From the IMG/VR virus record IMGVR_UViG_3300044641_002725: DNA of 64,000 bases; one strand, written 5' to 3'. The stretch's first letter is position 1, and the number at the start of each line of letters is the position of its first letter. The notes under the pieces are model-generated. The model made no database searches, had not been told where the DNA came from, and was given only the letters and a program-made list of their open reading frames with translations. The position numbers and the translations under genes were made by a program. This document shows positions 16,236 to 55,280 of this stretch, in pieces. The stretch comes from a virus.

Positions 16236-17573
16236 ATGACAATTAATAGTGTAATTTTAGCAAATACGTTTAATGAGTTTAGATCGACCGTTAATGAAGT
16301 CATTACGACCGTTAATGCTGGATTCGGCGTATCAGCAGGCACTGGTACGGGACTAACATCTGGAAGAGTTGTTCTTGGTGGCGCATCAGGCTCATTCACA
16401 GACGATTCTGAACTCACGTATGATACAAGCACAAACGTACTAACGCTTGGTGGAACAACAGATGCAACTGCGGCTAATAATGGAACTCTTGTTGTCGCTG
16501 GTGGTGTTGGTATCGCTAAAAAGTTATATGTTGGAACAGACTTAAGAGTAACTGGAATAACAACATTTGAAGGTAACGTATTTTTCTTAGGTTCAAATAC
16601 TTCAATCTCTACTGTTAATATTGAAGTCAATGATCCAATGCTTCATTTAGCCAATAACAATGTATCAGACGCAGTTGATATTGGTTTTCATGGACAATAT
16701 AATCAAGGTGGTGCCAACTTACACTCTGGTTTTTTCAGAGATGCTTCAGATGATACTTGGAAGCTATTCAGAAATTACAACATTGAACCAGCGCCAGCAA
16801 TTGATATTACTGCTAACGGGTTTGCATGGGCAAACTTAGCTATTGGCGGACTTACGGCTGCCAACAGTATCAATATTGGACCAGGACAAACATACAAGAT
16901 TAATACTGTTGACGTTTTAAGCGCAACGGCATTAGGGTCTTCAGTTGTCACATCGTCACTCACATCAACTGGCACAATTACTTCAGGCACATGGTCTGGT
17001 TCTTTCGGTGCAGTTAGCGGTGCAAACTTAACTTCATTAAACGCAAACAACATTGCAACAGGAACAGTAGCGCCAGCAAGACTTGCTTCAGGCACAGCAG
17101 ACGCTACTACATTCTTGCGTGGTGACAGCACTTGGGCATCAGCGGCTGTTTCAATTACAGATAACACAGCAACAAATTCAACATTCTTTCCAGTATTTAC
17201 TAGTGTAACATCTGGATCAATTGTTGGTGCGAATACATCATCTACAAAATTAACTTTCAATCCAAGTTCTGGATTGTTAACGTCAACTGATTACAATTCA
17301 TCTTCTGATGTGACATTAAAAGAAAACTTTACAGAGATTGTAAATCCATTAGACATTATATCTCAACTTGACGGATTTGGATTTAGTTGGAAAGACACAA
17401 AAGAAAAATCTTATGGGCTGTCAGCGCAACAAGTCGAGACAGTACTTCCTGAAATCGTTAGGGTTCGTCCTGATGGCACAAAAGGTATTAATTATTTGAA
17501 TTTGATTGCCTTTTTAGTAGAAGGAATTAAAGATTTAAAAGAAGAAGTTCGCCAACTCAAGTCTTATAAATAA
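16236..17573 (+). CDS. Tail fibre protein with C-terminal intramolecular chaperone (peptidase S74-like)
   Basis: G/T/S-rich fibre body; C-terminal SDVTLKENF...YGLSAQQVETVLPEIV...INYLNLIAFLVEGIKDL. Confidence 0.85.
   Translation: MTINSVILANTFNEFRSTVNEVITTVNAGFGVSAGTGTGLTSGRVVLGGASGSFTDDSELTYDTSTNVLTLGGTTDATAANNGTLVVAGGVGIAKKLYVGTDLRVTGITTFEGNVFFLGSNTSISTVNIEVNDPMLHLANNNVSDAVDIGFHGQYNQGGANLHSGFFRDASDDTWKLFRNYNIEPAPAIDITANGFAWANLAIGGLTAANSINIGPGQTYKINTVDVLSATALGSSVVTSSLTSTGTITSGTWSGSFGAVSGANLTSLNANNIATGTVAPARLASGTADATTFLRGDSTWASAAVSITDNTATNSTFFPVFTSVTSGSIVGANTSSTKLTFNPSSGLLTSTDYNSSSDVTLKENFTEIVNPLDIISQLDGFGFSWKDTKEKSYGLSAQQVETVLPEIVRVRPDGTKGINYLNLIAFLVEGIKDLKEEVRQLKSYK
17565..17572 (+). promoter_or_regulatory. 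T4-type late promoter
   Basis: TATAAATA upstream of the 17599 ORF. Confidence 0.65.
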
Positions 17574-17598
17574 GATAAGTTGACACAAAGGATAAAAA

Positions 17599-18276
17599 AT
17601 GGCAATTAAAGTCGGCAGTTGTACAGTCATTGATGACACAAGAAATCTAGCAAACGTATGCTCTATTTCATTGGTGTCTGGTGGGCAAGGAACAACAGGG
17701 CAAGTTTTAAAATCCCAAGGCACAGGGCAACCCTCAACTTGGGGTGCAGTTGATGCTATTACCAATTATGCGTATGATAGCAGAAATGACCTTAGAGCCA
17801 CAACACCAACAAACGGATCACAAGCATTCGTAGAAAATTTAGGATACTTTTCATTCAGTTTGGCTTCCGATGAACCAGATGACGATGAAACATCATTCAG
17901 AACATCAAATGGTGCTTGGCTTCTCTCTGCACCTATTTGGGATACAATTGAAGCATTCAATGCCTTTGAACCAAATGGCGGAAACTACAGCCTTGAAGTT
18001 GTGAATCAATTTGCTGGTGTTTCACCTTGTACATTTGCATGTCAATGTGTTTCTCTGCCAGGTGCAGTTCAAAGCGATGTTGTAGAAATATATGCAGTAT
18101 GTGGCGGATCTTTTGGTGGTCAAGTCTTTATGCGATATTGTGATCCGGCGTGGTGTATTGTTGCGTGGGGCGGCCCATCTGTTTGTGCAAGCGGTCCATG
18201 TAGCCCATCTGCAAGCATATGCGGAACTTGCTATGCAAACGTATGCAAGTGGAAAATTCATGTTCAGAAGGTATAA
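17599..18276 (+). CDS. Tail fibre-associated protein with Cys-rich C-terminus
   Basis: Fibre-type N-terminus MAIKVGSCTVIDDTRNL and GTTGQVLKSQGTG motif; 13 Cys, 11 of them in the last ~85 aa. Confidence 0.65.
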   Translation: MAIKVGSCTVIDDTRNLANVCSISLVSGGQGTTGQVLKSQGTGQPSTWGAVDAITNYAYDSRNDLRATTPTNGSQAFVENLGYFSFSLASDEPDDDETSFRTSNGAWLLSAPIWDTIEAFNAFEPNGGNYSLEVVNQFAGVSPCTFACQCVSLPGAVQSDVVEIYAVCGGSFGGQVFMRYCDPAWCIVAWGGPSVCASGPCSPSASICGTCYANVCKWKIHVQKV

Positions 18277-18293
18277 ATAGATGACTATAAATA
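18272..18293 (+). promoter_or_regulatory. Tandem pair of T4-type late promoters
   Basis: TATAAATA at 18272-18279 and 18286-18293, directly upstream of the Cys-rich gene. Confidence 0.75.
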
Positions 18294-18324
18294 GAATACT
18301 AGAAATAATCAAGGGGAGAACACC

Positions 18325-21300
18325 ATGCCAGTGGTAAGAGGTATACGAGTTTTAAATGCAATATCGACAGGGAATACAACACCCGGCTGTCTTGATACTT
18401 TGCTATCCGATGGTGGACGATTAGCCGATGTAACACAGGTGCTAAGTTCTCCACAATATTCATGTGCGTTGGCGCAATCAAATACTGCGGCACACACTCT
18501 AGTTCGTTCTAATAATGCGATGACTGCATTGTTTGCAAATCCAATTGGATCATGCATATTCTATCAAACTACTAATAGTAGAGATGATATGTTGGGGTCT
18601 TCTTGTTACTACAACTACATGATGAGTTTTTCAACACCAGAGGCAACTAATGCGTTCAATCACTTTGGTAATACACCATGTATGATTAACTGTGCATTTG
18701 CTAGTAACACAGCATTTTTAGCTACCGCAGTATCATCAAACTCAGATATTACTAAGATGTTAACGTGCAATTCGTGTGTATCTGCATGTTTTAGAGGTAC
18801 TGCATGTTCAATAAAAGAAGCCGTTGGAACTGCAGGTCGTGCGGCATTTTGGTTAAGTGATGCAACTGCACTTGGTTGTTTGACTGCATCTGGTTTAAGT
18901 ACTGCACTTTGCACCAGCGGATTTACAGACACTCTCAATAGAGATGTTGCATGTGTGATGTGTACTGCGGCTTTTCAATGTTGTATTTTCGCTCTGTCCG
19001 AGCCAGCAAATACATACACTAGATTAGTGTGTGCAACAAACGAAATTATCACTAAAGGCGCATGTGGCGAAAACGAAACAAGCTGTAATTTTGCTAGATG
19101 GTCTAATACTTCCTTTGGTATTTGTTGTATGGCTAAATTTCTTGAGTCAGGAAATACGTATTTCATGGATTGCTTCGCTTCTTTTGGTAGCAATAGACAA
19201 AGAGCATGTCTTTTTTGCTTTTGTACCACATTGACTGGTTCAAACCCCATATGTCCTTGCGGCAGCCTCGGATCTGGCCTCGAGCAATATGGGCACCGTA
19301 TAATCAAGTCCGACGTTATCGGTCGTGGATGCTATGTCGAAAACGATCCTAATGCTCCACATTTATATTTTCCATGCGGTGGGTTTAGACAATGTCCAAT
19401 GACAATTGCAAATGGATCTCAACTTTCAAATACTGAAGTAGAATATCTAGGTCGATTCATCAAGTGTAACTATAACGTTATTACACACGCAGACTGTAGA
19501 TTTACGATGATTTCTCCAGGATTCTGGAATCAAAGTAGTGCTATTGCATGTTTTAGAACTTGCTATACATGTTCTTTGGACAGAACAACTGCAAACACAT
19601 CTGGTTTGACATTGAATTGTGGATTGTATTATACAACAGACAATGCGGCTACATTCAATCGCCTTTGTGTGCCTCTTCCAGCATGTATTTTCCAACAACT
19701 TTGTGGAAATGTTTGCTGTCAATTTACAGTTAGATATGCGTTAAGTACTTTTGCATGTTGCAACTACGTATACACTGGTTGGATTATTACTGATTGCGCT
19801 ACTAATAATGGTGCCTCTGGTGTCTGTGGTCCAGCATATTTCAAAACTGGGCACTCAAGAATGTGTCTGTTTGCCAACAGTCAACCAAATACTGCATCTT
19901 GGACTCACTTTCCAGATGTTCCGTTGCCATTCTATACAGTTGCATTCTGTGATGAGTACTTTGCTGGCGTAAGCCCAATGAGAACTGATGGATATCAAAC
20001 CACATTAGGAATTGAAAATCAATTATGTTGCCAAGAAGCTGGGCAATATGCTATGATGTTCTCTTTTGGTAAAGTTGGAGGTTGCGTTAGAATTAGTTGC
20101 GACCATTTTGTTCGAAATACACCTGCTGGTTTAGCATGTTTTACTCCATGTACATGCTGTAATGCATGTCTGTCATTGCCAGCGGCCACACATTGTATTT
20201 ACGGCAGATGTTATGAAGATTATTTTCAAGGGCATGGATCAGGAACGCTTCCATACTGTCTGTGCCAGGCTCCTCACGTTACCTGCACAGACACATGTTC
20301 GATCCTGAGACACATGATTAACCCAACTGCGGCATCTCACACATTAATTTATAAAAACCCAAACAATCAAGCGGATTCTAAAGCATTCCTTGTTGGCTGG
20401 AGATCATTTGCAATGTTATATGGCGGTACCGCTGGTGGCTCCATCGCCACTTGCACGATGCTAGGTGCCCGAGACCAATTCCATTATTACAATTGTTGTA
20501 CATGCCGTGGCCAAGCCGAAGGCACAGTAGGCGGCTGTGGATATTTTAGAAATACACCTGGTGTGAACGTCTGGTGCTATGGCTCTCAAGCAAATAATAC
20601 AATGCAAGGAACAGAACTTGATTGTACTAACGCTTTAGCGATTGGTGGTAGTGCATGTTCTTGGACAAACTTTACTTTTGCAAATGCTAAAATAATTGGA
20701 TGTAGACTTGTGTTATCTGGAGCATATCCTCCAGTAATGACTATGTGTGCATGTTGTGCCAGTTGTGACGGTACCTCTGGTAGCACCGCCGTAGGCACAT
20801 CAGAAGGCGCTCACATTGGAGGGAATTTTGGATGCCAAAACGCATTAGGACAAACCGGACACACAACAGTATTTAATACAGATGGTGTTGTTGGAACAAT
20901 TGTGTGCTGTTTTGAGTCTATGTATCATCAAACTCCAAATAGTAGAGGCTACGATAGTACAATATGTAATCAAGTTTTTCATTGCTCTTATTGTTCTGGC
21001 AGATGTTTTTGTTGTAATTCAGGAGTTTGCCAGTGCATGGGACATGCTGGACAGCGCCATCACTTTGCGGCCGCAATTCTTTCCGATGAAGCTGGCTTGA
21101 AGACAGTTAATTTTTATGGTTCATCAAATTCAGTATATTCAGTCCCAGCATTTCCTAACATGCCTCCAATGATTGCATGTAGGCCTAATTGTGCTCATGC
21201 CGATTATCAGAACACTACTTGCTATGTTTCTCCGGCACCTACTGGCAGTAATATTGTTAGATCAGACAAGAGTATATTTTGTGTTATAGATATAGGTGAT

Positions 21301-22503
21301 GCATTTCAGCTATGTCATTTTGGCAATGCCGGTTGCTGTTGCCATGCGTCCACAGCCGAATGTGATAACCGCTTTTTTCATCAATGTAATCCTGGAAACG
21401 CAAATTCTATCGGAATCGTTGTAGCACACCACCTCTTCGGCGCAACCGGGCCGCACCCAGGTTGCTTTGCGGCAGTTTATACTCCCAAAAACTGTAGTCA
21501 AGACATGACAACGTTTGATGAAACGTTCAACTTCTGTTATCTCATAGCACCACACAAAGATTTTTGTTTGGAAGGGCCATACTGCTTTAATAGAGCATGT
21601 GAGTGTTTTGGTCCTAATTGCTGTTTGAGTGTACCATGTTCTCCTTGTTGCCCTGCCTGTAATATTGTGCTTTGTTGTCAAACCGGCGTTTGTGGCGGCA
21701 CTTACTCGGCTGACCATCCAGTATGTAATTTTACTAGAGCCAACGGTTTCACCGCACAACATGTGTGTGTTAATCAGATTGATACTCACTATCCATGCTG
21801 TCAGACACCACCACGCCGTTGCTGTGCGGCCTTTGTGGGATGTTGTGGAATAGGCAATCATTTTAAAGTTGTGGCGAACAATAATTCAACGTTTCAATGT
21901 GCAATGCTTGTTTGCGTACATCAGGCATGTGGCTCATGCATTGCGGGCGGTGCCTACACTGGATGTTGTTTTTCTGACAGTCGCACATGTTGTAGAATGA
22001 TTCCTTATGATAGACTTATGAGAACGTGCAATCAAGCTGGCCCTAATTGTTTGTGGTTTGATTTTATATCAAGTGGTGTTCCTTCATGGGGCGCATGTAA
22101 CTCTTGCAATTATAGACCATGTAAATCATATTGGAATGCACAATATATGATGGATATAAGAGTTTCTTGTGCTGATACATGTTTCTGTTGCAACTGCCTC
22201 TGTTTTGCCGCCCAAGATCATCGTAAGAGATCAGGATTTCAACTTTATAGTGCATGTAATTCAACATACTTTGCCGTAGATTCCCTTTGTTATGAGGTGA
22301 TGCCTGCAACTCAAACAAGAGGTTCTGGAGCACCATTAAATACTCAAAATAGCGTACACATTGCATATTTTGATTTGACTCCATATAGATGTTCTGCCTC
22401 TGGTGGTGGTGGATTCTTTGCAAATGGTAATCCAAGCGGTACTGTGTCCGGATGTTCTTGCTGTTTGATGTTTACCAAAATAGATATGTTCTATAATCTA
22501 TAA
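18325..22503 (+). CDS. Extremely cysteine-rich putative fibre/receptor-binding protein (1392 aa)
   Basis: Uninterrupted ORF with GGAG Shine-Dalgarno and late promoters; about 145 Cys by hand count; flanked by fibre and fibre-assembly genes. Confidence 0.7.
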   Translation: MPVVRGIRVLNAISTGNTTPGCLDTLLSDGGRLADVTQVLSSPQYSCALAQSNTAAHTLVRSNNAMTALFANPIGSCIFYQTTNSRDDMLGSSCYYNYMMSFSTPEATNAFNHFGNTPCMINCAFASNTAFLATAVSSNSDITKMLTCNSCVSACFRGTACSIKEAVGTAGRAAFWLSDATALGCLTASGLSTALCTSGFTDTLNRDVACVMCTAAFQCCIFALSEPANTYTRLVCATNEIITKGACGENETSCNFARWSNTSFGICCMAKFLESGNTYFMDCFASFGSNRQRACLFCFCTTLTGSNPICPCGSLGSGLEQYGHRIIKSDVIGRGCYVENDPNAPHLYFPCGGFRQCPMTIANGSQLSNTEVEYLGRFIKCNYNVITHADCRFTMISPGFWNQSSAIACFRTCYTCSLDRTTANTSGLTLNCGLYYTTDNAATFNRLCVPLPACIFQQLCGNVCCQFTVRYALSTFACCNYVYTGWIITDCATNNGASGVCGPAYFKTGHSRMCLFANSQPNTASWTHFPDVPLPFYTVAFCDEYFAGVSPMRTDGYQTTLGIENQLCCQEAGQYAMMFSFGKVGGCVRISCDHFVRNTPAGLACFTPCTCCNACLSLPAATHCIYGRCYEDYFQGHGSGTLPYCLCQAPHVTCTDTCSILRHMINPTAASHTLIYKNPNNQADSKAFLVGWRSFAMLYGGTAGGSIATCTMLGARDQFHYYNCCTCRGQAEGTVGGCGYFRNTPGVNVWCYGSQANNTMQGTELDCTNALAIGGSACSWTNFTFANAKIIGCRLVLSGAYPPVMTMCACCASCDGTSGSTAVGTSEGAHIGGNFGCQNALGQTGHTTVFNTDGVVGTIVCCFESMYHQTPNSRGYDSTICNQVFHCSYCSGRCFCCNSGVCQCMGHAGQRHHFAAAILSDEAGLKTVNFYGSSNSVYSVPAFPNMPPMIACRPNCAHADYQNTTCYVSPAPTGSNIVRSDKSIFCVIDIGDAFQLCHFGNAGCCCHASTAECDNRFFHQCNPGNANSIGIVVAHHLFGATGPHPGCFAAVYTPKNCSQDMTTFDETFNFCYLIAPHKDFCLEGPYCFNRACECFGPNCCLSVPCSPCCPACNIVLCCQTGVCGGTYSADHPVCNFTRANGFTAQHVCVNQIDTHYPCCQTPPRRCCAAFVGCCGIGNHFKVVANNNSTFQCAMLVCVHQACGSCIAGGAYTGCCFSDSRTCCRMIPYDRLMRTCNQAGPNCLWFDFISSGVPSWGACNSCNYRPCKSYWNAQYMMDIRVSCADTCFCCNCLCFAAQDHRKRSGFQLYSACNSTYFAVDSLCYEVMPATQTRGSGAPLNTQNSVHIAYFDLTPYRCSASGGGGFFANGNPSGTVSGCSCCLMFTKIDMFYNL

Positions 22504-22516
22504 CGTGAATTAACAT

Positions 22517-22933
22517 ATGAAACTTATCGTAGAAAATAATCGTGTTATAGCAACAACATTTGATGGATATGAAGGACCTCAGCAATGGGTTTCTTCTCCA
22601 TCAGACTTTGTTGAGTCTAGAGCATTCGAATATACATATATTAATGGTGTTCTAGACTTACCAATGCTTCCATATCTTGAAATAGAAACACAAAGAAGAT
22701 TGGACACATTCGCACAAACAAGAGGATATGAAAATATCAATTCTGCAACGACATATATAAGTTCGTCAGTAACAAAATATAAGAATGAGGGTACATATGC
22801 CGCTACTGCTAGAGATAGCACTTGGTCTGCATTGTACCAAATCATCGATGATGCAACTGATGGTAGAAGAGAAAAGATTGTAAATTTTTCTGAAATTGAA
22901 TCTGAATTACCATCACTTGCTTGGCCAACATAA
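22517..22933 (+). CDS. Tail fibre assembly/chaperone-like protein
   Basis: QRRLDTFAQTRGYENINSATTY...RDSTWSALYQI...ELPSLAWP resembles fibre-assembly proteins of proteobacterial phages. Confidence 0.65.
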   Translation: MKLIVENNRVIATTFDGYEGPQQWVSSPSDFVESRAFEYTYINGVLDLPMLPYLEIETQRRLDTFAQTRGYENINSATTYISSSVTKYKNEGTYAATARDSTWSALYQIIDDATDGRREKIVNFSEIESELPSLAWPT

Positions 22934-22950
22934 AAAAATATCAAAAAGAC

Positions 22951-22979
22951 TTGACAAATTGAGTTATATATAGTATAGT
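22951..22979 (+). promoter_or_regulatory. sigma70-type promoter for the glycosyltransferase/carbamoyltransferase operon
   Basis: TTGACA-N17-TATAGT; the spacer contains a late-box-like TATATATA. Confidence 0.7.
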
Positions 22980-23027
22980 GTTTGATGTGAAGTAACACTA
23001 TTCATCTTGAAAGGATTATGAGATAAT

Positions 23028-23966
23028 ATGAAAAAAGTAATTTATATTGACGGTGGTGCAGGAAGAGCAATTGCGGCACTACCAGCACTTGAAAAATTAG
23101 TTAGAAACAAAAAACCAGAAGATGACATAAAAATTATTGTCATGGGATGGGACAATTTATATTGGGGCAATCAACTGCTTCAAGATATCACATTTAGTGC
23201 AGATACAAAAGGTATCTTTGATCTAGTCATTAAAGGCGCAGACAAACACATCAGCCCAGAACCATATAAAGTTCCAGAGTACTATAATCAAAAAGTATCT
23301 CTAGCGGAAGCGTTCGACATTGAAATCAATGGCACACATGACCATTCTGATTTACCTCCACTCAAGTTGTACACTAGCAAAGCAGAAGAAAAGAATGCCG
23401 CTAATATGATTGCAGACATAAAGATGCAACAGAAAAAAGACAAGACACTTGTGATTCAACCTTATGGTAGAAGTGCAAGAGTTGATCGTGCTGACATTAT
23501 CGATGATTCATCTAGAGGTCTTGATTCACACGCATACTTACGTTTAGTTAGAAAACTTTCAACAAAGTACAATCTTATTTTGTTTGCAGAGAAACCATTT
23601 CACCAGCCAGATGATAACTTCACCTTTAAACCTGAAATAGATTTAAGGTCATGGTCTGCTGTTATTGAAGCGGCTGATTATTTTGTTGGTTGTGATTCTG
23701 TCGGACAGCATATGGCAAGAGCGTTTAATAAGCCAGGAACTGTTTTCATCGGATCCACATTCGCAAAGAACGTTTCATATCCAGATTGGTTCAATATTTA
23801 CGAACGACCTGGAGTCGAAAAGAAATACTCTCCAATTCGTATTTCTGGTTTAGATTCACACTTAGCAGATAGATACAATGACAAGTGCATGGATTTATCT
23901 GATAAAGATGTAGACGAGTTGTTTATTTCAATTGTTAAAGATATAGAGAAGAAGGTAGGAAAATAA
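23028..23966 (+). CDS. Glycosyltransferase, GT9/heptosyltransferase-like (GT-B fold)
   Basis: N-terminal GGAGRAIAALPAL (cf. GxGDxxxxxP) and C-terminal ADYFVGCDSVGQHMARAFNKPGTVFIGST (cf. DSGxxHxAxAxxxPxxxxxGxT). Confidence 0.7.
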   Translation: MKKVIYIDGGAGRAIAALPALEKLVRNKKPEDDIKIIVMGWDNLYWGNQLLQDITFSADTKGIFDLVIKGADKHISPEPYKVPEYYNQKVSLAEAFDIEINGTHDHSDLPPLKLYTSKAEEKNAANMIADIKMQQKKDKTLVIQPYGRSARVDRADIIDDSSRGLDSHAYLRLVRKLSTKYNLILFAEKPFHQPDDNFTFKPEIDLRSWSAVIEAADYFVGCDSVGQHMARAFNKPGTVFIGSTFAKNVSYPDWFNIYERPGVEKKYSPIRISGLDSHLADRYNDKCMDLSDKDVDELFISIVKDIEKKVGK

Positions 23967-23967
23967 T

Positions 23968-25740
23968 ATGAGTTATAATATTTTAGGTATCAATCCTGGT
24001 CATAATGGTTCTGCGGCATTACTAGTTGATGGTGAAGTTGTATACTATGTTGAAGAAGAAAGATTAAGTCGTGCTAAGTATGATGGTAATCCATTCAGAG
24101 GCATGTTAGACATTATGCAGAAATGGCACGTTGATGAACTTGTCATTGCTGGTACTGGACAAGAAGAACATAAACTTCCGTGGACAGGTGAAGATGCGTA
24201 TACTGCGCTTGTTCGCAAATTCTATCCTAATGTAAAAGTACAAAGACTTGGAAATGAACATCACTTGGGTCATGCCGCATCTGCATTTTACAATTCTGGA
24301 TTTGAAACAGCAATTGCACTTATTGTAGATGGTGCTGGTTCACTCAAAAAAGAAAAAGTGGATGAGAAGAATGAAACTATCACAGCCGAAGGATATGAAA
24401 CAGAATCGATTTGGCATTGTGAATATCCAGGCAAATTTGCTTTAGTGCGAAAAGTTTATGGTAACAATGCCGGACCAAAAGTCGATACTGGAGTATTTGA
24501 TTTTGATGGTGGCGCAACAACTGTTACTAAAGCATACGAAGCAGTATCTCAGTACTTAGGCTTTGGTTTTATCGAAGCAGGTAAGACAATGGGACTTGCA
24601 CCATATGGTAAGTATGATGACAATATTCCTAGATTGTTTAATGGTAATAGGGGTTCAAAAGATGTTTTCATTCCTGCATATCCAGCGGGTGCTTACATCG
24701 ACCAAGGAAGATTTCCATATCTAAGACAATATGCAGATCCAAGAGATTGGCATAAAGACTCTGAAAAATTAACAACTGTTGAAAAGAATCTTGCTTGGCA
24801 TATTCAAAATGATACGCAACAGATAATTGGTGACTACATTGAACTTGCAGTTCAAGCTACAAAAGTAGAAAATATTGTTATCGCTGGTGGTTATGGTTTG
24901 AATTGCGTTGCAAACTATTACTTAAAGAAACGTTTTCCACATTTAAACATTTATGTTGAACCAGTCGCAAATGATGCTGGTACTGCAATTGGTGTTGCAA
25001 AACTTTCTTGGCACACTTCACAAAATGATAGTACAGTTCGCCCACAGAAAAGCATCTATTACGGACCTGAGTATTCAAAAGAATTGCTTGAGTATATCTT
25101 AGACGCAAACAAAGAAGCAATCAAAGTAACTCCTACTACAAAAGAAGAAGTTGCACAATTGATTGCTGATAAAAATATTGTTTCGATCTTTCAAGGTCGT
25201 TCTGAAGCTGGTCCTCGTGCATTGGGTAATCGTTCTATTCTTTATGATTCAAGAGATCCAGAAGGTAAAGACAAAGTTAATCTTGTCAAAGGTCGTGAAT
25301 GGTTTAGACCATTTGCAGGCTCTGTCTTGCTAGAAGACGCAAACGATTGGTTTGACATGGCTGGACTTGAAGAGTCTCCATTTATGATGTATGCAGTTAA
25401 TGTTGCCGCAGACAAAGTGAGTGAGATTCCGTGTGTTACACACGTTGATGAAACTTGTCGTGTGCAAACTGTTTCTGAAGAGAACAACAAGCATTACTAT
25501 GAATTGATTAAGGCATACAAAGACATTACTGGTGTTCCAGTTATCTTCAATACTTCATTCAATCTTGCTGGTCATCCTTTAGTTGAGACACTACAAGATG
25601 CATTGATGACAATCTTTAGTTCTAAACTAAAATATATCTACTTGCCTGAGTTAGGTGTTCTTGTCGAAAAGACAATTGATGATCCAACAGAGAAAGTTGA
25701 AGCTGAAGAAGTTGAAACAGAAACAGCAACTGAAGAATAA
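23968..25740 (+). CDS. O-carbamoyltransferase (NodU/CmcH/TobZ family)
   Basis: EEERLSRAK, HHLGHAASAF, DGAG, GKTMGLAPYG, GGYGLNCVAN, GPRALGNRS, REWFRPFA, NTSFN. Confidence 0.93.
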   Translation: MSYNILGINPGHNGSAALLVDGEVVYYVEEERLSRAKYDGNPFRGMLDIMQKWHVDELVIAGTGQEEHKLPWTGEDAYTALVRKFYPNVKVQRLGNEHHLGHAASAFYNSGFETAIALIVDGAGSLKKEKVDEKNETITAEGYETESIWHCEYPGKFALVRKVYGNNAGPKVDTGVFDFDGGATTVTKAYEAVSQYLGFGFIEAGKTMGLAPYGKYDDNIPRLFNGNRGSKDVFIPAYPAGAYIDQGRFPYLRQYADPRDWHKDSEKLTTVEKNLAWHIQNDTQQIIGDYIELAVQATKVENIVIAGGYGLNCVANYYLKKRFPHLNIYVEPVANDAGTAIGVAKLSWHTSQNDSTVRPQKSIYYGPEYSKELLEYILDANKEAIKVTPTTKEEVAQLIADKNIVSIFQGRSEAGPRALGNRSILYDSRDPEGKDKVNLVKGREWFRPFAGSVLLEDANDWFDMAGLEESPFMMYAVNVAADKVSEIPCVTHVDETCRVQTVSEENNKHYYELIKAYKDITGVPVIFNTSFNLAGHPLVETLQDALMTIFSSKLKYIYLPELGVLVEKTIDDPTEKVEAEEVETETATEE

Positions 25741-25765
25741 AAAAAGCCCCTTTTGGGGCTTTTTT
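25741..25765. terminator. Bidirectional rho-independent terminator
   Basis: AAAAAGCCCC-TTTT-GGGGCTTTTTT between convergent genes. Confidence 0.85.
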
Positions 25766-25766
25766 G

Positions 25767-26465
25767 TTATGCAAGAGAATTTGCAAAATCTAGTAGAGAG
25801 TTAAACGTCTTTGTTTTATTCTTTAACTCCTTATTTGCAAATGTATCTAGTTTAGACTCTACATCTTCATAACCAGGAGATTTAATTAGAATAGGTTTTG
25901 CATGTACAGAGTCGCCAGCTTTCAGATTATATAATTTGTTGCCTGCAAAGTATCCACCCTTGAATGCAACTTTCATATCATTCTCAGCACGTTTCATCAT
26001 ACCATTGTTTGGCATTGCAAACAAATCTTCTTTCATGTTGGATGTTGCATATAGAAGTCCGTCAATTGTAAAGATTCCAGCTTGACCAAAATAATTCATC
26101 AACTGTTGAACATTAGAATCTACTGCTTGAGTAGTTAATTTACCTTGACTGATTAGGGGTTCATTAAAGAATATGACAAGTTTATATCCTTTTAGACGAA
26201 TAGTACGAATTGCATCTAATGCACCAGGAAGTATTTCTATATCAGATGGATTAATAATAGGTTTAGTGTCATTTAAAATTACACCTCTATCAATACCAAT
26301 TGTTTCTTTAGGAAAATAAGTTGGCCAGTTTTGCTGTTGCTGAGGCATTTGTTGGCCATATGGTGAACTATAGTTTTGTTGTCCGTACGGTTGCATCTGT
26401 GGCATAGTAGGTGATGGTGGTTGACCACCAACGTTCATGCTTCTATCTATTGAAAATCTTCCCAT
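25767..26465 (-). CDS. gmhB: GmhB-like HAD protein (heptose bisphosphate phosphatase fold), catalytic motifs degenerate
   Basis: Aligns by eye to GmhB (ILPGALDAI, GYKLVIFFNE, IDGLLY, PNNGM, FAGNK) but lacks key residues; Q/P-rich N-terminal extension. Confidence 0.7.
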   Translation of the reverse strand: MGRFSIDRSMNVGGQPPSPTMPQMQPYGQQNYSSPYGQQMPQQQQNWPTYFPKETIGIDRGVILNDTKPIINPSDIEILPGALDAIRTIRLKGYKLVIFFNEPLISQGKLTTQAVDSNVQQLMNYFGQAGIFTIDGLLYATSNMKEDLFAMPNNGMMKRAENDMKVAFKGGYFAGNKLYNLKAGDSVHAKPILIKSPGYEDVESKLDTFANKELKNKTKTFNSLLDFANSLA

Positions 26466-26477
26466 TGTTAAATCCTC

Positions 26478-27392
26478 TCAAATCTTAAAAAATTCATTTA
26501 TACTTCTGAAATGCGTTTTAATTCCTGCATCTCTTAATTTAGTCATGTCAGCACACGTCCAATATTGATATTTTGTTTGATACTCTTTTGGAAAAGGAAC
26601 AGTTTCAACTTTAGCATTTTCTCTCTGTGCAATAATTTCAGCAACTCTAGCAAAAGATTCTGGTGCACCTGTGCCCAAATTAAAAATTCCACTATTCATT
26701 TTGTTGAATGCTAATTCTATTTTGGCTTGTACAATATCTTCAACACAAACGAAATCTCTGAATATACTTTCTGAGCCAGAGAATAATTTTATTTTTCCTG
26801 TTTCTCTTGCTTGAATAGTAAACTTGGTGATTGGGCTTGCTTGATCTTTCTTATGCAATTCATTTTCGCCATAAACATTGAAGTATCTTAGCCCTTGAAT
26901 GTTGAATTCAAACTTACTAGAGTATTCTGACTCCATCAATTTAATAATTTTTTTGTCAAACATATATTTAGAAAATGCATATGGTGTTTGTGGATACATT
27001 GAAGCAGATTCTGGCACTCTGAAGTTTGCGGGCATGTCACCGTAAACACTTGCACTAGATGCATATTGAAAAGGTATCTTATGTTCAAACGATTTTCTCA
27101 AAAGTTTTTCTGAGAATTCATAATTTCTTTTCATTAACAAAGTACCATTTGTTTCTCTAGTAGAAGAAATTGCACCTTCATGGAAAATAAACTTGACACT
27201 ATCCCAATCAGAGAATGTATCAAAAAATGAATCAACATCATAATAATCACCAAACGTTGTGCCGTTTAGATTCATCATCTTATTGCCATCAGTCAAATCA
27301 TCAACAACTATGATTTCTGATATGCCTCTTGCATTTAATGCTCTAATTAAATTTGATCCAATGAATCCAAATCCGCCAGTAACCAGTATCAT
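26478..27392 (-). CDS. hldD: ADP-L-glycero-D-manno-heptose 6-epimerase
   Basis: VTGGFGFIGSNL, FHEGAISST, YASSASVYG, YAFSK, LRYFNVYG, RDFVCVED, YQYWTCADMTKLRDAG. Confidence 0.92.
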   Translation of the reverse strand: MILVTGGFGFIGSNLIRALNARGISEIIVVDDLTDGNKMMNLNGTTFGDYYDVDSFFDTFSDWDSVKFIFHEGAISSTRETNGTLLMKRNYEFSEKLLRKSFEHKIPFQYASSASVYGDMPANFRVPESASMYPQTPYAFSKYMFDKKIIKLMESEYSSKFEFNIQGLRYFNVYGENELHKKDQASPITKFTIQARETGKIKLFSGSESIFRDFVCVEDIVQAKIELAFNKMNSGIFNLGTGAPESFARVAEIIAQRENAKVETVPFPKEYQTKYQYWTCADMTKLRDAGIKTHFRSINEFFKI

Positions 27393-27763
27393 TATTGTTC
27401 CTTGCTCTGCTGACTATCTCCAGGCAGAACACGATAATTATCTTGAACACTATCTGGTGTGGAGACTTCTATGATTGTGCCTTCTTCTAGGCAAATAACT
27501 TGATGTGGTTGTAGAGGACGATTACGCCAAACTTCTCCAGCTTTCAGCGTTACGTCATGCATACTTGCGTCTTTAGTCTCAATGAATTTAATCATAAATA
27601 AACCATCTAACACATACCAAGATTCATCTTTTTCAGCATGGAAGTGCATACTGAATTTTGCGCCTTTATTGAACTTCATCAATTTGCCGCAATACTTATC
27701 GTTGGTAGCCCAAATCAATTCGTGACCCCAACCCTTTTTCACAAAACCTTCTAGTCTTTCCAT
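27392..27763 (-). CDS. Cupin, sugar isomerase-like (mannose-6-phosphate/D-lyxose isomerase type)
   Basis: KGWGHE, SMHFHAEKDESWYV, PHQ, IEVST; GAGGTG Shine-Dalgarno before ATG 27763. Confidence 0.75.
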   Translation of the reverse strand: MERLEGFVKKGWGHELIWATNDKYCGKLMKFNKGAKFSMHFHAEKDESWYVLDGLFMIKFIETKDASMHDVTLKAGEVWRNRPLQPHQVICLEEGTIIEVSTPDSVQDNYRVLPGDSQQSKEQ

Positions 27764-27784
27764 ATTATTCACCTCGCTTATAAC

Positions 27785-27813
27785 ATTATACTTTATTTAG
27801 CACATTAAATCAA
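27785..27813 (-). promoter_or_regulatory. Composite sigma70/late promoter for cupin-hldD-gmhB
   Basis: Minus strand TTGATT-N17-TATAAT with CTAAATA embedded in the spacer. Confidence 0.65.
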
Positions 27814-27878: not shown

Positions 27879-28628
27879 ATGAGTACAAGCAAACCAGCAA
27901 CAAGAGAAGAATTTAAGCAATTCTGCCTTAGAAGACTAGGTGCGCCTCTCTTAGAGATAAACGTAGCTGACGAACAAGTTGAAGACTGCATTGAGATTGC
28001 ATTTCAATATTACTACGATTACCACTATGACGCAACGGAAAAAGTCTATCTAGCACACGCAGTCACGCAAGATGACATAACAAACAAATACATCACATTA
28101 CCAGATTCTGTCATTGGTGTTATGAATATCTTTGACATTGGCGACAGTTATTCTACAAACAATCTTTTCAATTTGAGATATCAGATTTCTTTGAATGATT
28201 TGTATTCATTCAATACTGGTCCGTTTGCGCCATACTACATGGCATTTCAAAACGTTGCAATGGCAGAAGAACTGTTTGTGGGTAAACAATCCCTCAGATT
28301 CAATCGCCACATCAACAGAGTTTACATTGACATGTCTTGGGACACAAAAGTAACTATTGGTGAATTCATTATCATCGAAGGATATCAGAAGATTGATCCT
28401 GACACATTCACAGATGTATACAATGATAGATTCTTGCAGAAGTATTGTACCGCACAAATCAAAAAACAATGGGGTGAAAACCTTAAAAAGTTTGAGGGAC
28501 TTTCTATGCCAGGTGGTATTACGTTTAACGGACAGAAAATCTGGGATGAAGCTACAGATGAAATTCAAGCATTAGAAGCAGAAGTCATTAGCACGTATTC
28601 TCTACCTGTTACTGACATGCTAGGCTAA
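27879..28628 (+). CDS. gp13: Neck protein gp13
   Basis: PATREEFKQFCLRRLGAPLLEINV, KKQWGENLKKF, PGGITFNG. Confidence 0.93.
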   Translation: MSTSKPATREEFKQFCLRRLGAPLLEINVADEQVEDCIEIAFQYYYDYHYDATEKVYLAHAVTQDDITNKYITLPDSVIGVMNIFDIGDSYSTNNLFNLRYQISLNDLYSFNTGPFAPYYMAFQNVAMAEELFVGKQSLRFNRHINRVYIDMSWDTKVTIGEFIIIEGYQKIDPDTFTDVYNDRFLQKYCTAQIKKQWGENLKKFEGLSMPGGITFNGQKIWDEATDEIQALEAEVISTYSLPVTDMLG

Positions 28629-28633
28629 TCACA

Positions 28634-29458
28634 ATGGCACGCAATCGTTTTTTTAATCAATACACTCCTGTTAAGCAGGAACAAAATCTTGTTGAAGATT
28701 TAATTATAGAATCTATCAAGATTTATGGTATAGATGGTTATTACTTACCAAGAACGCACGTAAATTTAGATAAGATTTATGGCGAAGATGCGTCTATGCT
28801 TTTTGATGATGCACTTGAAATGGAACTGTATGTAAAAAGTTTTGATGGCTTTATGGGACAAGAAGACTTTATGGCAAAGTTTGGTCTTCAAGTTGACGAA
28901 TCAGTCACATTTGTTATTTCGCAAAAACGATTCACACAATCACTCAAAACATCTATAATCACAGAATACTCATACAACATGTTGACTGAAGATGGAGAAG
29001 AATTATTAAGCAACAGGAATGATGTGTCAGAGTATGATTACGAAGCCATTGTGAGACCAAGAGAGGGTGATTTAATTTGGATTCCTATGTTTGAAAGCAT
29101 GTATGAAATTAAATTCACTCAAAATATTGAGAACTTCTTTCAATTAGGCAAACTCTACACATACGAACTACGTTGTGACAGACTCGAATACTCTAGCGAA
29201 CGTATTAATACTGACATTACCGAAATTGATGCAAACGAAGATCAATACAGTTTGTCAACTGCTAATAATGAAAAATTACTTGACGAAGATAATTTCTTGT
29301 TCTTGCTTGAAGACGGCACATTCATTATCAACGAAGCTGATGTTGTTGTTCTAGCAGAGATTTCAGCAGACAATGAAGAGATTGGTCAGAAAATTATTGA
29401 CGATGATATTCTAGATTTCTCAGAACAAAACCCATTCTCATTGACAAGGACTTTCTAA
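28634..29458 (+). CDS. gp14: Neck protein gp14
   Basis: EQNLVEDLIIESIKIYG, RPREGDLI, FFQLGKLYTYELRC, LDFSEQNPF. Confidence 0.93.
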   Translation: MARNRFFNQYTPVKQEQNLVEDLIIESIKIYGIDGYYLPRTHVNLDKIYGEDASMLFDDALEMELYVKSFDGFMGQEDFMAKFGLQVDESVTFVISQKRFTQSLKTSIITEYSYNMLTEDGEELLSNRNDVSEYDYEAIVRPREGDLIWIPMFESMYEIKFTQNIENFFQLGKLYTYELRCDRLEYSSERINTDITEIDANEDQYSLSTANNEKLLDEDNFLFLLEDGTFIINEADVVVLAEISADNEEIGQKIIDDDILDFSEQNPFSLTRTF

Positions 29459-29459
29459 T

Positions 29460-30215
29460 ATGATGTTCGGACACGACTTCTATCACGGAACGCTAAGACG
29501 TTACGTAATCATGTTTGGTAATTTGTTTAACGAAATTCAAGTTGACAGATACGATTCTGCTGGAACTAAAATTCAAACTGTCAACGTTCCAATTGAGTAT
29601 GGACCAAAACAAAAGTTTATTCAAAGGGTGACTAGCGATCCTGATTTGAATCGCCATGTTTCTACTACATTGCCAAGACTTGGATTTGAGTTTACTAGCA
29701 TGTCATATGCGCCTCAGCGTAAATTAAACAGCGCACATAAAATAACTAGAGGCGTAAATACTGGAGGGCTAGACTTCAATTATATGCACACACCTGTGCC
29801 ATATGACTTCAGCTTTTCTTTACATGCACTTTTTAGAAACACCGAAGACGGCACACAAATTGTAGAACAGATTGTGCCATTCTTTACACCAGACTTTACT
29901 GTGACAATGAAGATGATTCCAGAGATGGCACTTAACATGGATATTCCAATTGAGTTAAACTCGGTAACTTCATCAGACACATACGAAGGAGATATGGATT
30001 CTCGCAGAATTCAAACGTACCAATTAGATTTTACAGTCAAAGGATATTTGTTTGGACCAACTAAGAAGTTCAAGTACATTGCTAAAGAAGATATTAATTT
30101 TATTGATGATGGCTCTGCAATCAACAAAGCAATCATATCTACTCAAACATTTACTGGAAACTCTGAGTTTGAAGTAACCGAAACGCAAACTAACAACAAT
30201 GGATATACGACATAA
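29460..30215 (+). CDS. gp15: Tail sheath stabiliser/completion protein gp15
   Basis: FYHGTLRRYVIMFGNLFNEI, VPIEYGPKQKF, QIVEQIVPFFTP. Confidence 0.93.
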   Translation: MMFGHDFYHGTLRRYVIMFGNLFNEIQVDRYDSAGTKIQTVNVPIEYGPKQKFIQRVTSDPDLNRHVSTTLPRLGFEFTSMSYAPQRKLNSAHKITRGVNTGGLDFNYMHTPVPYDFSFSLHALFRNTEDGTQIVEQIVPFFTPDFTVTMKMIPEMALNMDIPIELNSVTSSDTYEGDMDSRRIQTYQLDFTVKGYLFGPTKKFKYIAKEDINFIDDGSAINKAIISTQTFTGNSEFEVTETQTNNNGYTT

Positions 30216-34771: not shown

Positions 34772-34781
34772 GGAATAAAAA

Positions 34782-55028: not shown

Positions 55029-55280
55029 ATGAGTAACGAAGAAGATAAATTTAAAAAATCTAAGCGAATCCTTAAAGACAAAAATGCAATACGAAAGCAA
55101 ATGAAAATTGCTAAAGCATATAATATACCAGTTGAGTCACCACACCAATTAGCTAAACATCATGTACTAGATTGTGGAAATCCAAATTGTGTGATGTGTG
55201 CAAATCCTAGAAAAGTATGGAAAGAAAAAACGATCCAAGAGAAACGTTTTGAACAAACTGAAAAATTTGATAATGATTAA
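55029..55280 (+). CDS. Hypothetical basic protein with CGNPNCVMC motif
   Basis: AGGAG Shine-Dalgarno; possible Zn-binding His/Cys cluster. Confidence 0.6.
   Translation: MSNEEDKFKKSKRILKDKNAIRKQMKIAKAYNIPVESPHQLAKHHVLDCGNPNCVMCANPRKVWKEKTIQEKRFEQTEKFDND

Follow-up and report, generated by a model that had tools for sequence, protein, structure and literature searches.

A marine T4-like phage, represented by a 64-kb window (the whole stretch of DNA analysed, 64,000 nucleotides), carries genes for sugar-modifying enzymes next to genes for Cys-rich, presumed fibre proteins. This locus raises the question whether the enzymes act on the fibre of the phage itself or on the envelope of its host. 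The enzyme cassette is already present in published cyanophage genomes, where it goes under the name of 'LPS genes'. The explanation that we prefer, at roughly even chances, is a tail-fibre tailoring module, in which the enzymes decorate the hypervariable fibre of the phage with (carbamoyl-)heptose.

Layout of the island and its Cys-rich proteins

The island is located between the genes of gp8 (8537–9817) and gp13/14/15 (27879–30215), which agrees with the compact island that the first-pass annotation had placed in the T4 gp9–gp12/wac slot. ORFs were called mechanically. On the plus strand, two Cys-rich late genes, a 138-aa ORF and the genes of a GT9-fold enzyme and a carbamoyltransferase follow each other up to an intrinsic terminator (25740–25765). 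Beyond it the genes of a GmhB-like protein, HldD and a cupin converge from the minus strand, as first annotated. The convergent genes meet at this terminator, a perfect hairpin whose 11-bp stem has an A-run on one side and a T-run on the other; it is indeed bidirectional and shared.

The upstream neighbour of the Cys-rich genes encodes a tail-fibre protein of 445 aa without any Cys (16236–17573, plus strand), which matches many PHROG tail-fibre families and ends in a Peptidase_S74 domain (Pfam PF13884, E 6e-12), an intramolecular chaperone. This protein is hypervariable: it is 67% identical to its counterpart in the related locus L009, where gp13–15 are 99% identical. Each of the two Cys-rich genes has a late promoter of its own, which agrees with the late expression proposed for them earlier. 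T4-type late boxes TATAAATA are found immediately 5' of the 225-aa gene (17565–17572) and, as a pair starting at 18272 and 18286 (18272–18293), of the 1392-aa gene. Ten such boxes are present in the window, all on the plus strand, against 4.9 expected, and at least ten were reached in 3 of 100 shuffles.

Both Cys-rich proteins are recognised from ORF call and composition. The smaller one (17599–18276, plus strand, 225 aa) contains 13 Cys (5.8%), concentrated in its C-terminal 85 residues. It belongs to no known family in Pfam, PHROGs or NCBIfam, and homologues were detected in the five closest loci, L009–L013, alone. The larger one (18325–22503, plus strand, 1392 aa) contains 145 Cys (10.4%) and little Lys and Glu. 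In Pfam, PHROGs and NCBIfam it has no match, and so no homology to known fibres there; 22 metagenomic homologues share 43–66% identity. Among the 54 window ORFs of at least 100 aa, Endonuclease VII (6.5%) is the only other one with at least 4% Cys. The 1392-aa protein is 65% identical to that of L009, with flanking genes there (gp13–15, HldD, cupin and transferase) at 97–100%, and L012 and L013 share with it just the N-terminal ~290 aa. It is presumably a hypervariable fibre or receptor-binding protein.

Its cysteines are aperiodic, as had been noticed before, with a spacing near random (CC 22 versus 15 expected, CxxC 11 versus 12 expected). In 13 aligned homologues the Cys content stays within 9.4–10.5%, while of the 145 Cys positions only 57 do not vary, and in 81 alignment columns just one sequence has a Cys. 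Cys is nevertheless the best-conserved common residue, with a mean identity of 0.73. The Cys-rich neighbours of the transferase in relatives fall into more than 20 families that BLAST does not link and that have Cys richness alone in common; the recognisable domains among them are Gly_rich_2, Peptidase_S74 or Phage_Tail_Tip. Since the total is held while positions and spacing vary, and unlinked families share the trait, the composition appears to be conserved and not a fixed disulfide or metal pattern.

In relatives the next gene after the Cys-rich one encodes a Phage_tail_APC chaperone. Here this position is occupied by the 138-aa ORF (22517–22933, plus strand), which has no match in Pfam, PHROGs or NCBIfam and no profile similarity to those Phage_tail_APC proteins (hhalign probability 0.2%). 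Its earlier description as a fibre-assembly protein is thus unconfirmed.

The transferase and the other enzymes

The transferase (23028–23966, plus strand, 312 aa) belongs to an essentially phage-restricted family: a search of 185,579 species genomes yields 14 loci, each of them on a MAG contig, and none in an isolate bacterial genome. Its AF2 model (pLDDT 97.5) adopts the fold of WaaC, WaaF and other GT9 enzymes (PDB 2GT1, 2H1H, 1PSW, 3TOV), with VIA Z values of 24.4 to 3tov, 22.0 to WaaF, 21.0 to TibC and 19.8 to WaaC, versus 12.1 or less to other GT-B families. The GT9-like glycosyltransferase of the first annotation is thus confirmed by fold, at a Pfam GT9 score (16.1 bits) below the cut-off of 22. 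The C-terminal donor-binding motif is shared with WaaF (hhalign probability 88.7%, E 2.6e-6, 164 columns), whereas sequence comparison detects no resemblance of the N-terminal acceptor domain to that of WaaC or WaaF. This domain is acidic to neutral, with a median net charge of –3 over 57 diverse family members, and those of WaaF (+6) and WaaC (+8) are basic. The motif DSxGxH of the donor domain is invariant in the family, and D223, S224, H228, R163, R207 and D159 vary little or not at all among the 57 members, which argues for an active enzyme. Catalysis is uncertain because an Arg stands at the position of Asp13 of WaaC. From the GT9 fold, the motif similarity and the presence of HldD we infer heptose as the donor sugar. 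In close relatives the transferase is better conserved than the neck proteins, and one family member is a GT8–GT9 fusion. To our knowledge, LPS is the substrate of every characterised GT9 enzyme outside the TibC/AAH family.

The carbamoyltransferase (23968–25740, plus strand, 590 aa) starts 2 nt past the transferase stop. It has both Pfam domains, Carbam_trans_N and Carbam_trans_C, as do the O-carbamoyltransferases TobZ, NodU, CmcH, NovN and GdmN, and it matches phrog_1601, TobZ (E 9e-57) and, over residues 11–559, chain 7xb6; its NodU/CmcH assignment stands. The known enzymes carbamoylate small-molecule sugars and macrolactams, whereas the substrate of the phage enzyme is presumed to be a protein- or nucleotide-linked heptose.

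On the minus strand, HldD (26478–27392, 304 aa), the ADP-glycero-manno-heptose 6-epimerase, scores 301.1 bits against TIGR02197 (cut-off 274.6) and contains GxxGxxG and YxxxK. GmhB is the best NCBIfam and PDB match of the GmhB-like HAD-fold protein (25767–26465, 232 aa), yet below cut-off. Its N-terminus is extended by a Gln/Pro-rich segment, and the HAD motifs I–IV are degenerate without exception (DR-G, FFNEP, MPN and GNKxxN versus DRDG, TNQGG, KPN and GDKxxD in relatives). Judged by these motifs, it is probably a catalytically dead pseudo-phosphatase. Among the window ORFs neither GmhA nor a heptose kinase nor an adenylyltransferase was detected, so HldD is the sole recognisable enzyme of the ADP-heptose pathway. 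Of the ADP-heptose enzymes first claimed for the island, HldD holds and the GmhB-like protein does not. The metal-type cupin (27392–27772, 126 aa) matches Cupin_2 and phrog_7851, a WbuC family below cut-off and, weakly, bicupins in the PDB. It corresponds to T4-GC 307 of cyanophages, where the label 'cysteine dioxygenase' finds no support in Pfam, PHROG, NCBIfam or PDB matches.

Sigma-70-like promoter matches, called by consensus only, are found in the gap 5' of the transferase gene (22951–22979, plus strand, TTGACA-17-TATAGT, 11/12) and 5' of the cupin–HldD–GmhB-like operon (27785–27813, minus strand, TTGATT-17-TATAAT). Such matches are not above shuffles in regional total. The best of them precede both enzyme operons, whose expression may therefore be early and separate from that of the fibre.

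Linkage of the transferase to Cys-rich genes

The linkage was analysed in the best 80 of 593 confirmed IMG/VR loci, a non-random sample of close relatives, at thresholds (at least 5% Cys, at least 100 aa) that were set after the first examples had been seen. In these 80 loci, ORFs of at least 5% Cys account for 76 of 351 upstream and 7 of 529 downstream of the transferase (Fisher p 5e-25). Upstream sequence of at least 3 kb is available for 63 loci. A Cys-rich ORF lies upstream in 50 of them, in 47 within 2.5 kb, and when the transferases are clustered at 70% identity, 11 of the 14 clusters have one. In 73 of 79 loci the transferase is directly followed by the ORF of the carbamoyltransferase. 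At the 5% threshold 13 of the 63 informative loci have no Cys-rich upstream ORF, and in some of these the enzyme pair lies amid GT1, sulfotransferase and methyltransferase genes, which are typical of polysaccharide synthesis.

The independent set of MAG contigs has a Cys-rich neighbour in 12 of 13 loci. The transferase also adjoins Cys-enriched fibre-type genes in the cyanophages P-SSM2, S-SSM7, S-CAM1 and S-CAM3. The Cys-rich family of S-SSM7 gp114, a paralogue that matches Gly_rich_2, was found in 21 records of the phage collection; 20 are among the 55 transferase-bearing records and the 21st is another contig of a same-named virus. Two further carriers, Aeromonas phage HJ05 and an N4-like Vibrio phage, have no heptose or carbamoyl genes, yet in both the transferase adjoins a tail protein, with a Cys content of 4.4% or 4.1%. 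In five T4-like phages without the transferase, 4 of 195 ORFs in 250 kb of structural regions reach 5% Cys; these are 106–290 aa long and none is fibre-like. The transferase, the carbamoyltransferase and the Cys-rich fibre gene are thus tightly linked, and the co-occurrence expected from the first annotation extends over three unrelated phage groups. Taken with the controls, it favours an enzyme–fibre link over a purely host-directed role.

The closest counterpart is the cyanomyovirus 'LPS gene' cassette T4-GC 302–308 (PSSM2_307–313 in P-SSM2, SSSM7_120–131 in S-SSM7; also S-CAM1, S-CAM3 and Sf-FS3). As in the window, the same transferase family (37–39% identity) is followed by the same carbamoyltransferase, cupin (T4-GC 307) and heptose epimerase (T4-GC 308) are present, and the cassette lies directly behind tail-fibre genes, with Cys-rich ORFs of 10–11.5% Cys. 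In the cyanophages these are two or three short paralogues (260–360 aa), while the window has the giant 1392-aa and the 225-aa proteins. By record annotations, GmhA, kinase and adenylyltransferase are present there, in P-SSM2 and S-SSM7 together with transferase and epimerase, and GmhB is absent; the window has only HldD, cupin and the degenerate GmhB-like gene.

Proposed fibre tailoring and its alternatives

Fibre tailoring would proceed as follows. The two Cys-rich late proteins would be fast-evolving, fibre-type host-recognition parts of the virion. This identity is suggested by their own late promoters, the Phage_tail_APC gene behind the Cys-rich gene of relatives, the domains recognised in Cys-rich neighbours and the divergence of the 1392-aa protein from its counterparts in L009, L012 and L013. 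In the cytoplasm the GT9-fold enzyme would probably transfer heptose from ADP-heptose to them, and the TobZ/NodU-type enzyme would probably then add carbamoyl to a hydroxyl of this heptose. Most of the ADP-heptose pathway would be supplied by the host. The phage would contribute HldD, for conversion of D,D- to L,D-heptose, and the cupin, whose step is unassigned, and would retain an apparently inactive GmhB-like protein. The (carbamoyl-)heptose coat that was suggested at the outset gains from the enzyme–fibre linkage and its controls and loses from the incomplete phage pathway. P-SSM2 and S-SSM7 carry heptose genes and the transferase although cyanobacterial LPS, according to the part of PMC4515613 available to us, is devoid of heptose and Kdo, which supports fibre tailoring.

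Bacterial TibC and AAH, which heptosylate the adhesins TibA and AIDA-I of their own cell (PDB 4RAP, 4RB4; PMC4358343), offer the precedent: in the cytoplasm a GT9-like core transfers heptose from ADP-heptose to a protein, and the enzyme gene adjoins that of the substrate, in the phage the presumed one. The phage enzyme superimposes on TibC (Z 21.0, rmsd 3.0, 266 residues) without detected sequence similarity to TibC or AAH. It aligns to TibC 97–393 only and thus lacks the N-terminal beta-barrel, cannot form the four-Cys iron finger with its 2 Cys, and carries an Arg close to where the catalytic Asp would be. Virion proteins of mycobacteriophages are reportedly decorated by phage-encoded glycosyltransferases as well (Freeman et al. 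2023 is said to describe this), with other GT families, sugars and virion targets than in the window. We know of no dedicated nucleotide-sugar pathway, carbamoylation or Cys-rich substrate in that system.

The enzymes could instead modify the LPS core, capsule or S-layer glycan of the host, for instance to block superinfection or to keep progeny off lysed cells, and their adjacency to the fibre would reflect shared hypervariable-region dynamics. Host LPS synthesis, or 'stuffer DNA', is what Sullivan et al. 2005 and 2010 (PMC1079782, PMC3037559) propose for the cassette in the sections available, and those of the 2010 paper contain neither the word cysteine nor the word heptose; an excerpt of a 2025 paper (PMC12801897) files such genes under cell-wall synthesis or modification. 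The WaaC- and WaaF-like fold and donor motif, the GT8–GT9 fusion, the sigma-70-like promoters of both enzyme operons and the GT1, GT2, sulfotransferase, methyltransferase and sugar-dehydratase genes that flank the pair in Cys-poor relatives agree with this explanation, which the first annotation had also named. It is weakened, and in our view rather unlikely, by the lack of canonical heptose/Kdo acceptors in cyanobacterial LPS (PMC4515613, in the same part), the charge of the acceptor domain, the absence of the family from isolate bacteria, the conservation of the transferase relative to neck proteins, and the Cys-enriched tail proteins beside it even in the Vibrio and Aeromonas phages, where further sugar genes are absent.

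The cysteines themselves might accept heptose, as the first annotation had considered, or be carbamoylated directly, which we regard as improbable. Precedents are the S-glycosylation of glycocins and HypF, which is related to this carbamoyltransferase class and transfers a carbamoyl group to a Cys thiol of HypE. Their constant total at shifting positions, the near-random spacing without CxxC excess and the many unlinked Cys-rich families are consistent with such acceptors, and a thiolate might tolerate the Arg in place of the GT9 catalytic-base Asp. However, the S-glycosyltransferases that we know of belong to another family than the GT9-fold enzyme, the closest solved carbamoyltransferases (TobZ and the novobiocin and geldanamycin enzymes) are small-molecule O-carbamoyltransferases, and structural disulfides would be expected to make Cys the best-conserved common residue, as it is. 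Disulfide-linked cyanophage fibres are documented: in the portion of PMC9942802 available, Pam3 fibre gp24, with a glycine-rich tip domain and structural tail cysteines, is disulfide-bonded to the baseplate wedge and lost under DTT. That text mentions no tailoring enzymes, and Pam3 relies on a few defined Cys, far short of 10% of the residues. Cysteines for oxidative cross-linking or metal binding could accordingly harden the released fibre in oxic seawater, next to functionally unrelated enzymes that make a soluble heptose-containing product, or to a transferase that is a non-catalytic assembly factor. The missing Asp13 equivalent and the decay of the heptose pathway in this clade (pseudo-GmhB, no kinase or adenylyltransferase) fit this explanation, which we consider just as improbable as thiol modification. 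If there were no functional tie, a linkage that spans three phage groups and hundreds of loci would be difficult to account for, and the near-invariant donor-site residues speak for an active enzyme.

The island and its Cys-rich proteins

The window holds the structural half of a T4-like myophage. Upstream of the island the gene order is gp25, gp6, gp8, a 2047-aa DUF4815 protein and a fibre with a Peptidase_S74 chaperone, and downstream it is gp13, gp14, gp15, terminase, sheath, tube, portal, prohead genes and gp23. The gp23 protein is 68% identical to that of Stenotrophomonas phage DLP6, 66% to those of Methylophilales phage Melnitz and Pelagibacter phage Mosig, and about 63% to those of cyanophages. 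It is about equidistant from several phages and points to no single host; the phage is not clearly a cyanophage. A tandem pair of gp19-type tail-tube paralogues (178 and 197 aa) is found at 34235-35375, and a 1250-aa protein that combines collagen triple-helix repeats with an alanine-zipper region lies between the portal and prohead genes (37111-40863). A dCMP/cytidine deaminase, a SAM methyltransferase-like protein and a TET-associated glycosyltransferase (Pfam TAGT, E 1e-38) are encoded in a row at 55198-57787. Together with a 2OG-Fe(II) oxygenase at 52000-52614 they may form a DNA base hypermodification module.

ORF translation of the plus strand of the island gives a 225-aa protein with 13 Cys (5.8%; 17599-18276), a 1392-aa protein with 145 Cys (10.4%; 18325-22503), a 138-aa protein (22517-22933), a transferase-like protein of 312 aa (23028-23966) and a carbamoyltransferase of 590 aa (23968-25740), which starts two bases past the transferase stop. 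The GmhB-like gene (25767-26465), hldD (26478-27392) and the cupin gene (27392-27772) are located on the minus strand at 25767-27772, convergent with the plus-strand genes. Between the convergent gene ends, at 25740-25765, lies a perfect hairpin bordered by an A-run and a T-run, which agrees with the shared bidirectional terminator proposed in the first-pass annotation. T4-type late promoter boxes of the sequence TATAAATA are found at 17565, 18272 and 18286, immediately 5' of both Cys-rich genes. The window holds ten such boxes, all on the plus strand, and the majority precede structural genes. Of the sigma-70-like matches in the region, the best precede the transferase gene and the cupin operon, within the intergenic gaps; overall, such matches are no more common than in shuffled sequences.

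The cysteine content of the two proteins is real and unusual, as had been noticed at first pass: the window's remaining ORFs of 100 aa or more contain 0-3% Cys, with Endonuclease VII excepted. The 1392-aa frame is the sole long frame in its stretch, and its product has 22 metagenomic homologues with 43-66% identity, mostly over the full length. Across 13 aligned homologues the Cys content ranges from 9.4% to 10.5%. Invariance is limited to 57 of the 145 Cys positions in this alignment, so the high density is kept while many positions turn over; Cys occurs in a single sequence in 81 alignment columns. The spacing is near random (22 CC against 15 expected, 11 CxxC against 12), and the cysteines are aperiodic, as originally described. 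CxxC and CxC spacings show no excess in the 1392-aa protein, which makes Zn or Fe-S clusters a less likely reason for the cysteines.

A comparison with the closest relative, L009, shows 97-100% identity for gp13-15, HldD, the cupin and the transferase, 65% for the 1392-aa protein and 67% for the adjoining fibre. Two further relatives (L012 and L013) have the N-terminal ~290 residues alone in common with the 1392-aa protein. A late promoter, a place in the tail module, a conserved N-terminus with a replaceable distal part, and hypervariability are all found for this protein. This pattern, in which the attachment end stays constant and the distal part is exchanged, is that of a receptor-binding fibre, and we presume the protein to be one. 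No family match was obtained in Pfam, PHROGs or NCBIfam, and a search of the ESM Atlas gave no usable match. The AF2 model of residues 1-800 has a mean pLDDT of 36, and only the helical residues 1-200 reach 70-80. In a wide VIA search with the model of this protein the best Z was 8.0 (7qlr, a phage receptor-binding protein), below the meaningful level for helical repeats. Neither tblastn of both Cys-rich proteins against 50,697 phage records nor megablast of the island against phage records returned a match.

In relatives, a Phage_tail_APC chaperone gene comes right after the Cys-rich gene, and the 138-aa gene (22517-22933) occupies this position here. Its earlier designation as a fibre-assembly protein is not confirmed. 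The protein has no Pfam match at E up to 1, PF16778 included, and against positional equivalents that carry PF16778 hhalign gives a probability of 0.2% and BLASTP no alignment. Its homologue in L013 (7324-7929) ends in a C-terminal tandem 'EVSNT' peptide repeat, which is absent from the other homologues.

The GT9-like transferase and the heptose genes

The transferase (23028-23966) scores 16.1 bits against Pfam GT9 (PF01075; cut-off 22), with only residues 197-236 matched. Among eight longer family members scanned, two (P0127 and P0048) lie above the cut-off with 22.7 and 22.9 bits. The GT9-like assignment made at first pass is nevertheless borne out by the fold, in spite of this sub-threshold score. 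The AF2 model, built from a 57-sequence alignment, has a pLDDT of 97.5, and its best VIA matches are all GT9 proteins: 3tov (Z 24.4), WaaF (1psw, 22.0), the protein heptosyltransferase TibC (21.0) and WaaC (19.8). Other GT-B families reach a Z of at most 12.1. The family comprises 378 clusters at 50% identity in a search of 1.84 billion representatives. Among 185,579 prokaryote species (one genome each) there were 14 occurrences, every one on a MAG contig of incoherent taxonomy, and the family is therefore essentially a phage family.

The two lobes of the protein behave differently in the comparison with WaaC and WaaF. The C-terminal donor domain matches E. coli WaaF in hhalign (probability 88.7%, E 2.6e-6). 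The DSGxxH region of this domain aligns with the same stretch of WaaF, WaaC, 1psw and 3tov; D223 and H228 are invariant and S224 is present in 56 of 57 members. Based on the fold, this motif and the neighbouring HldD, we infer ADP-heptose as the donor. The N-terminal (acceptor) domain of the family gives no hhalign match to WaaC or WaaF. An ungapped alignment of residues 1-21, which is short and scores 27, places G12-R13 and L18-P19-A20-L21 opposite G12-D13 and L18-P19-A20-L21 of WaaC. By this short sequence alignment, 53 of 57 family members carry Arg at the apparent equivalent of WaaC Asp13, the catalytic base of that enzyme. The median net charge of the acceptor domain is -3 in the phage family, compared with +6 in WaaF and +8 in WaaC.

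The TibC/AAH study (PMC4358343) describes an N-terminal beta-barrel, a four-Cys iron finger and a dodecamer. The alignment of our model covers TibC residues 97-393 only, without this beta-barrel, and the transferase has two Cys in all, too few for the iron finger. Residues 150-159 of the AF2 model form a beta-hairpin in the C-lobe which ends at the invariant D159. The same study reports a beta-hairpin 'thumb' in the C-lobe of TibC that mediates oligomerisation (PMC4358343). To be noted, in P0127, a metagenomic transferase-family protein of 558 aa, a GT8 glycosyltransferase domain is naturally fused to the phage GT9-like domain, which hints that in some phages the heptose may be extended to an oligosaccharide.

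The neighbouring enzyme (23968-25740) is a full-length TobZ/NodU-type carbamoyltransferase. Both Pfam domains score above the cut-off (Carbam_trans_N 102.2 bits, Carbam_trans_C 198.8 bits) and the match to TobZ has an E of 9e-57, so the NodU/CmcH-type label of the first-pass annotation stands. That annotation also listed two ADP-heptose enzymes, and here the outcome is divided. HldD (26478-27392) passes the equivalog TIGR02197 with 301.1 bits (cut-off 274.6), and the SDR motifs GxxGxxG and YxxxK can be read in the translation. The GmhB-like protein (25767-26465) has GmhB as its best match, yet at 57 bits against a cut-off of 178. Its HAD motifs I-IV are degenerate (DR-G, FFNEP, MPN and GNKxxN), whereas many relatives keep DRDG, TNQGG, KPN and GDKxxD.

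No PfkB kinase, adenylyltransferase or GmhA was found in the 64-kb window; relatives such as L056 and L033 additionally have genes for a PfkB kinase and a cytidylyltransferase-like adenylyltransferase. The donor pathway here would consist of HldD, the cupin and an apparently inactive GmhB-like protein. Such a partial pathway suggests a host that produces ADP-heptose. The degenerate GmhB-like form is also present at L009-L013, L016, L017, L034, L040, L042 and L088 and is kept in several clades, and in those inspected the heptose kinase and adenylyltransferase are absent too. In the window, about 55 Gln/Pro-rich residues extend the N-terminus of the GmhB-like protein. This degenerate form may be a pseudo-enzyme that has taken on a new role.

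The cupin (27392-27772) is labelled cysteine dioxygenase in PHROG and GenBank entries, which would offer a link to the cysteines. We rejected this label as an annotation artefact: neither Pfam nor NCBIfam gives a cysteine-dioxygenase family match, and oxalate-decarboxylase-type bicupins are its top matches in the PDB.

Linkage of the transferase to Cys-rich genes

The first-pass annotation had raised the association of transferase homologues with neighbouring Cys-rich genes as a test, and it is borne out. Among the best 80 of 593 IMG/VR loci, which are the closest relatives and no random sample, a Cys-rich ORF lies upstream in 50 of 63 informative loci and in 11 of 14 transferase clusters. Cys-rich ORFs account for 76 of the 351 upstream and 7 of the 529 downstream in these loci, with ORFs called mechanically and thresholds chosen after the first examples. 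The transferase adjoins a Cys-rich ORF in 12 of 13 MAG loci. The cyanophages P-SSM2 and S-SSM7 contain the same transferase-carbamoyltransferase pair with ORFs of 10-11.5% Cys directly upstream, and their records annotate heptose genes, a cupin and an epimerase near the pair. Three AG-345 marine virus contigs have the same arrangement.

In the phage collection, 55 records contain the transferase and 21 the S-SSM7 gp114 family. Of the 21, 20 are among the records with the transferase, and the last is another contig of the same-named virus. In an N4-like Vibrio phage and in Aeromonas phage HJ05 the transferase is found without other sugar genes and adjoins a tail protein of 4.4% and 4.1% Cys, respectively. 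As a control, five T4-like phages without the transferase (250 kb) contain no Cys-rich fibre-like gene. The Cys-rich neighbours fall into more than 20 groups without BLAST links between them, and all recognisable domains among them are fibre domains: Gly_rich_2 (S-SSM7 gp114), Peptidase_S74 (L065) and Phage_Tail_Tip (Vibrio phage).

Proposed fibre tailoring, host LPS and possible roles of the cysteines

The most economical reading of these data is that the enzymes decorate fibre proteins of the phage itself with carbamoylated heptose. The transferase would put heptose on the fibre and the carbamoyltransferase would then carbamoylate the bound sugar. TibC and AAH, which act on their adhesins according to PMC4358343, provide a model. 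The published idea is that such enzymes act on host LPS, as put forward in PMC1079782 and PMC3037559. We favour the fibre as the substrate over host LPS because the linkage to fibre genes spans unrelated phage groups, because the acceptor domain of the transferase is not basic, and because cyanobacterial LPS is without heptose and Kdo, as stated in PMC4515613. On the other side, Cys-poor relatives place the transferase-carbamoyltransferase pair in polysaccharide-type gene sets, which speaks against fibre tailoring, and the catalytic Asp that appears to be absent from the transferase also counts against it.

A narrower proposal concerns the cysteines themselves. The GT9-derived enzyme, with Arg in place of Asp, would join heptose to the Cys thiols of hypervariable fibres. 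Selection would then act on the Cys density (~10%) and not on the positions, because the cysteines would be the modification sites. We regard it as improbable that the GT9-derived enzyme heptosylates fibre thiols and the TobZ-like enzyme then carbamoylates the attached heptose, as an unrecognised modification in many marine and aquatic phages. Disulfide cross-linking, as described for Pam3 in PMC9942802, is at least as likely an explanation of the cysteines. If this proposal were true, both the S-linked heptosylation of a protein and the carbamoylated protein glycan would be firsts.

The enzyme cassette itself is known already and has been listed in cyanophage genomes since 2005. We know of no function demonstrated since then for the 'LPS genes' of large cyanophages. 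Sullivan 2010 (PMC3037559) notes that it was not known whether these genes are functional or 'stuffer DNA'. In our data they are tied tightly, and almost exclusively, to fibre genes that are Cys-rich and evolve fast, and this holds for T4-like, N4-like and other phages. Our literature search, over main texts with few subscription journals among them, found no published link between these enzymes and Cys-rich fibres. The linkage makes the function of the 'LPS genes' directly accessible in cultured phages. Should fibre tips prove to be glycosylated, a glycan layer would have to enter the models of how abundant ocean phages recognise hosts, evolve their host range and keep their virions stable, and the GT9 family would gain a new branch directed at proteins. 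The window contributes a variant with a giant candidate substrate of 1392 aa and a decaying donor pathway, and this decay suggests that the host itself supplies ADP-heptose.

Other sugar-tailoring genes surround the transferase-carbamoyltransferase pair in two relatives without a strongly Cys-rich fibre, L050 (3100-11526) and L068 (2074-9269). Each encodes a GT1 glycosyltransferase, two sulfotransferases and one methyltransferase, which is TylF-like and fused to a GT2-like region in L050 and of the FkbM type in L068. L050, whose fibre contains 4.7% Cys, has in addition a GDP-mannose-dehydratase-like enzyme. By gene content, these are a larger glycan-tailoring set behind a fibre. In Pelagibacter phage Mosig (L091, 29702-46306) a carbamoyltransferase lies beside tail-fibre genes without a GT9-like transferase. 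Radical-SAM-like 'MoaA' proteins, an aminotransferase, methyltransferases, oxygenases and nitroreductase-like genes are also found there, and the group may be a different fibre-linked or glycan-tailoring set.
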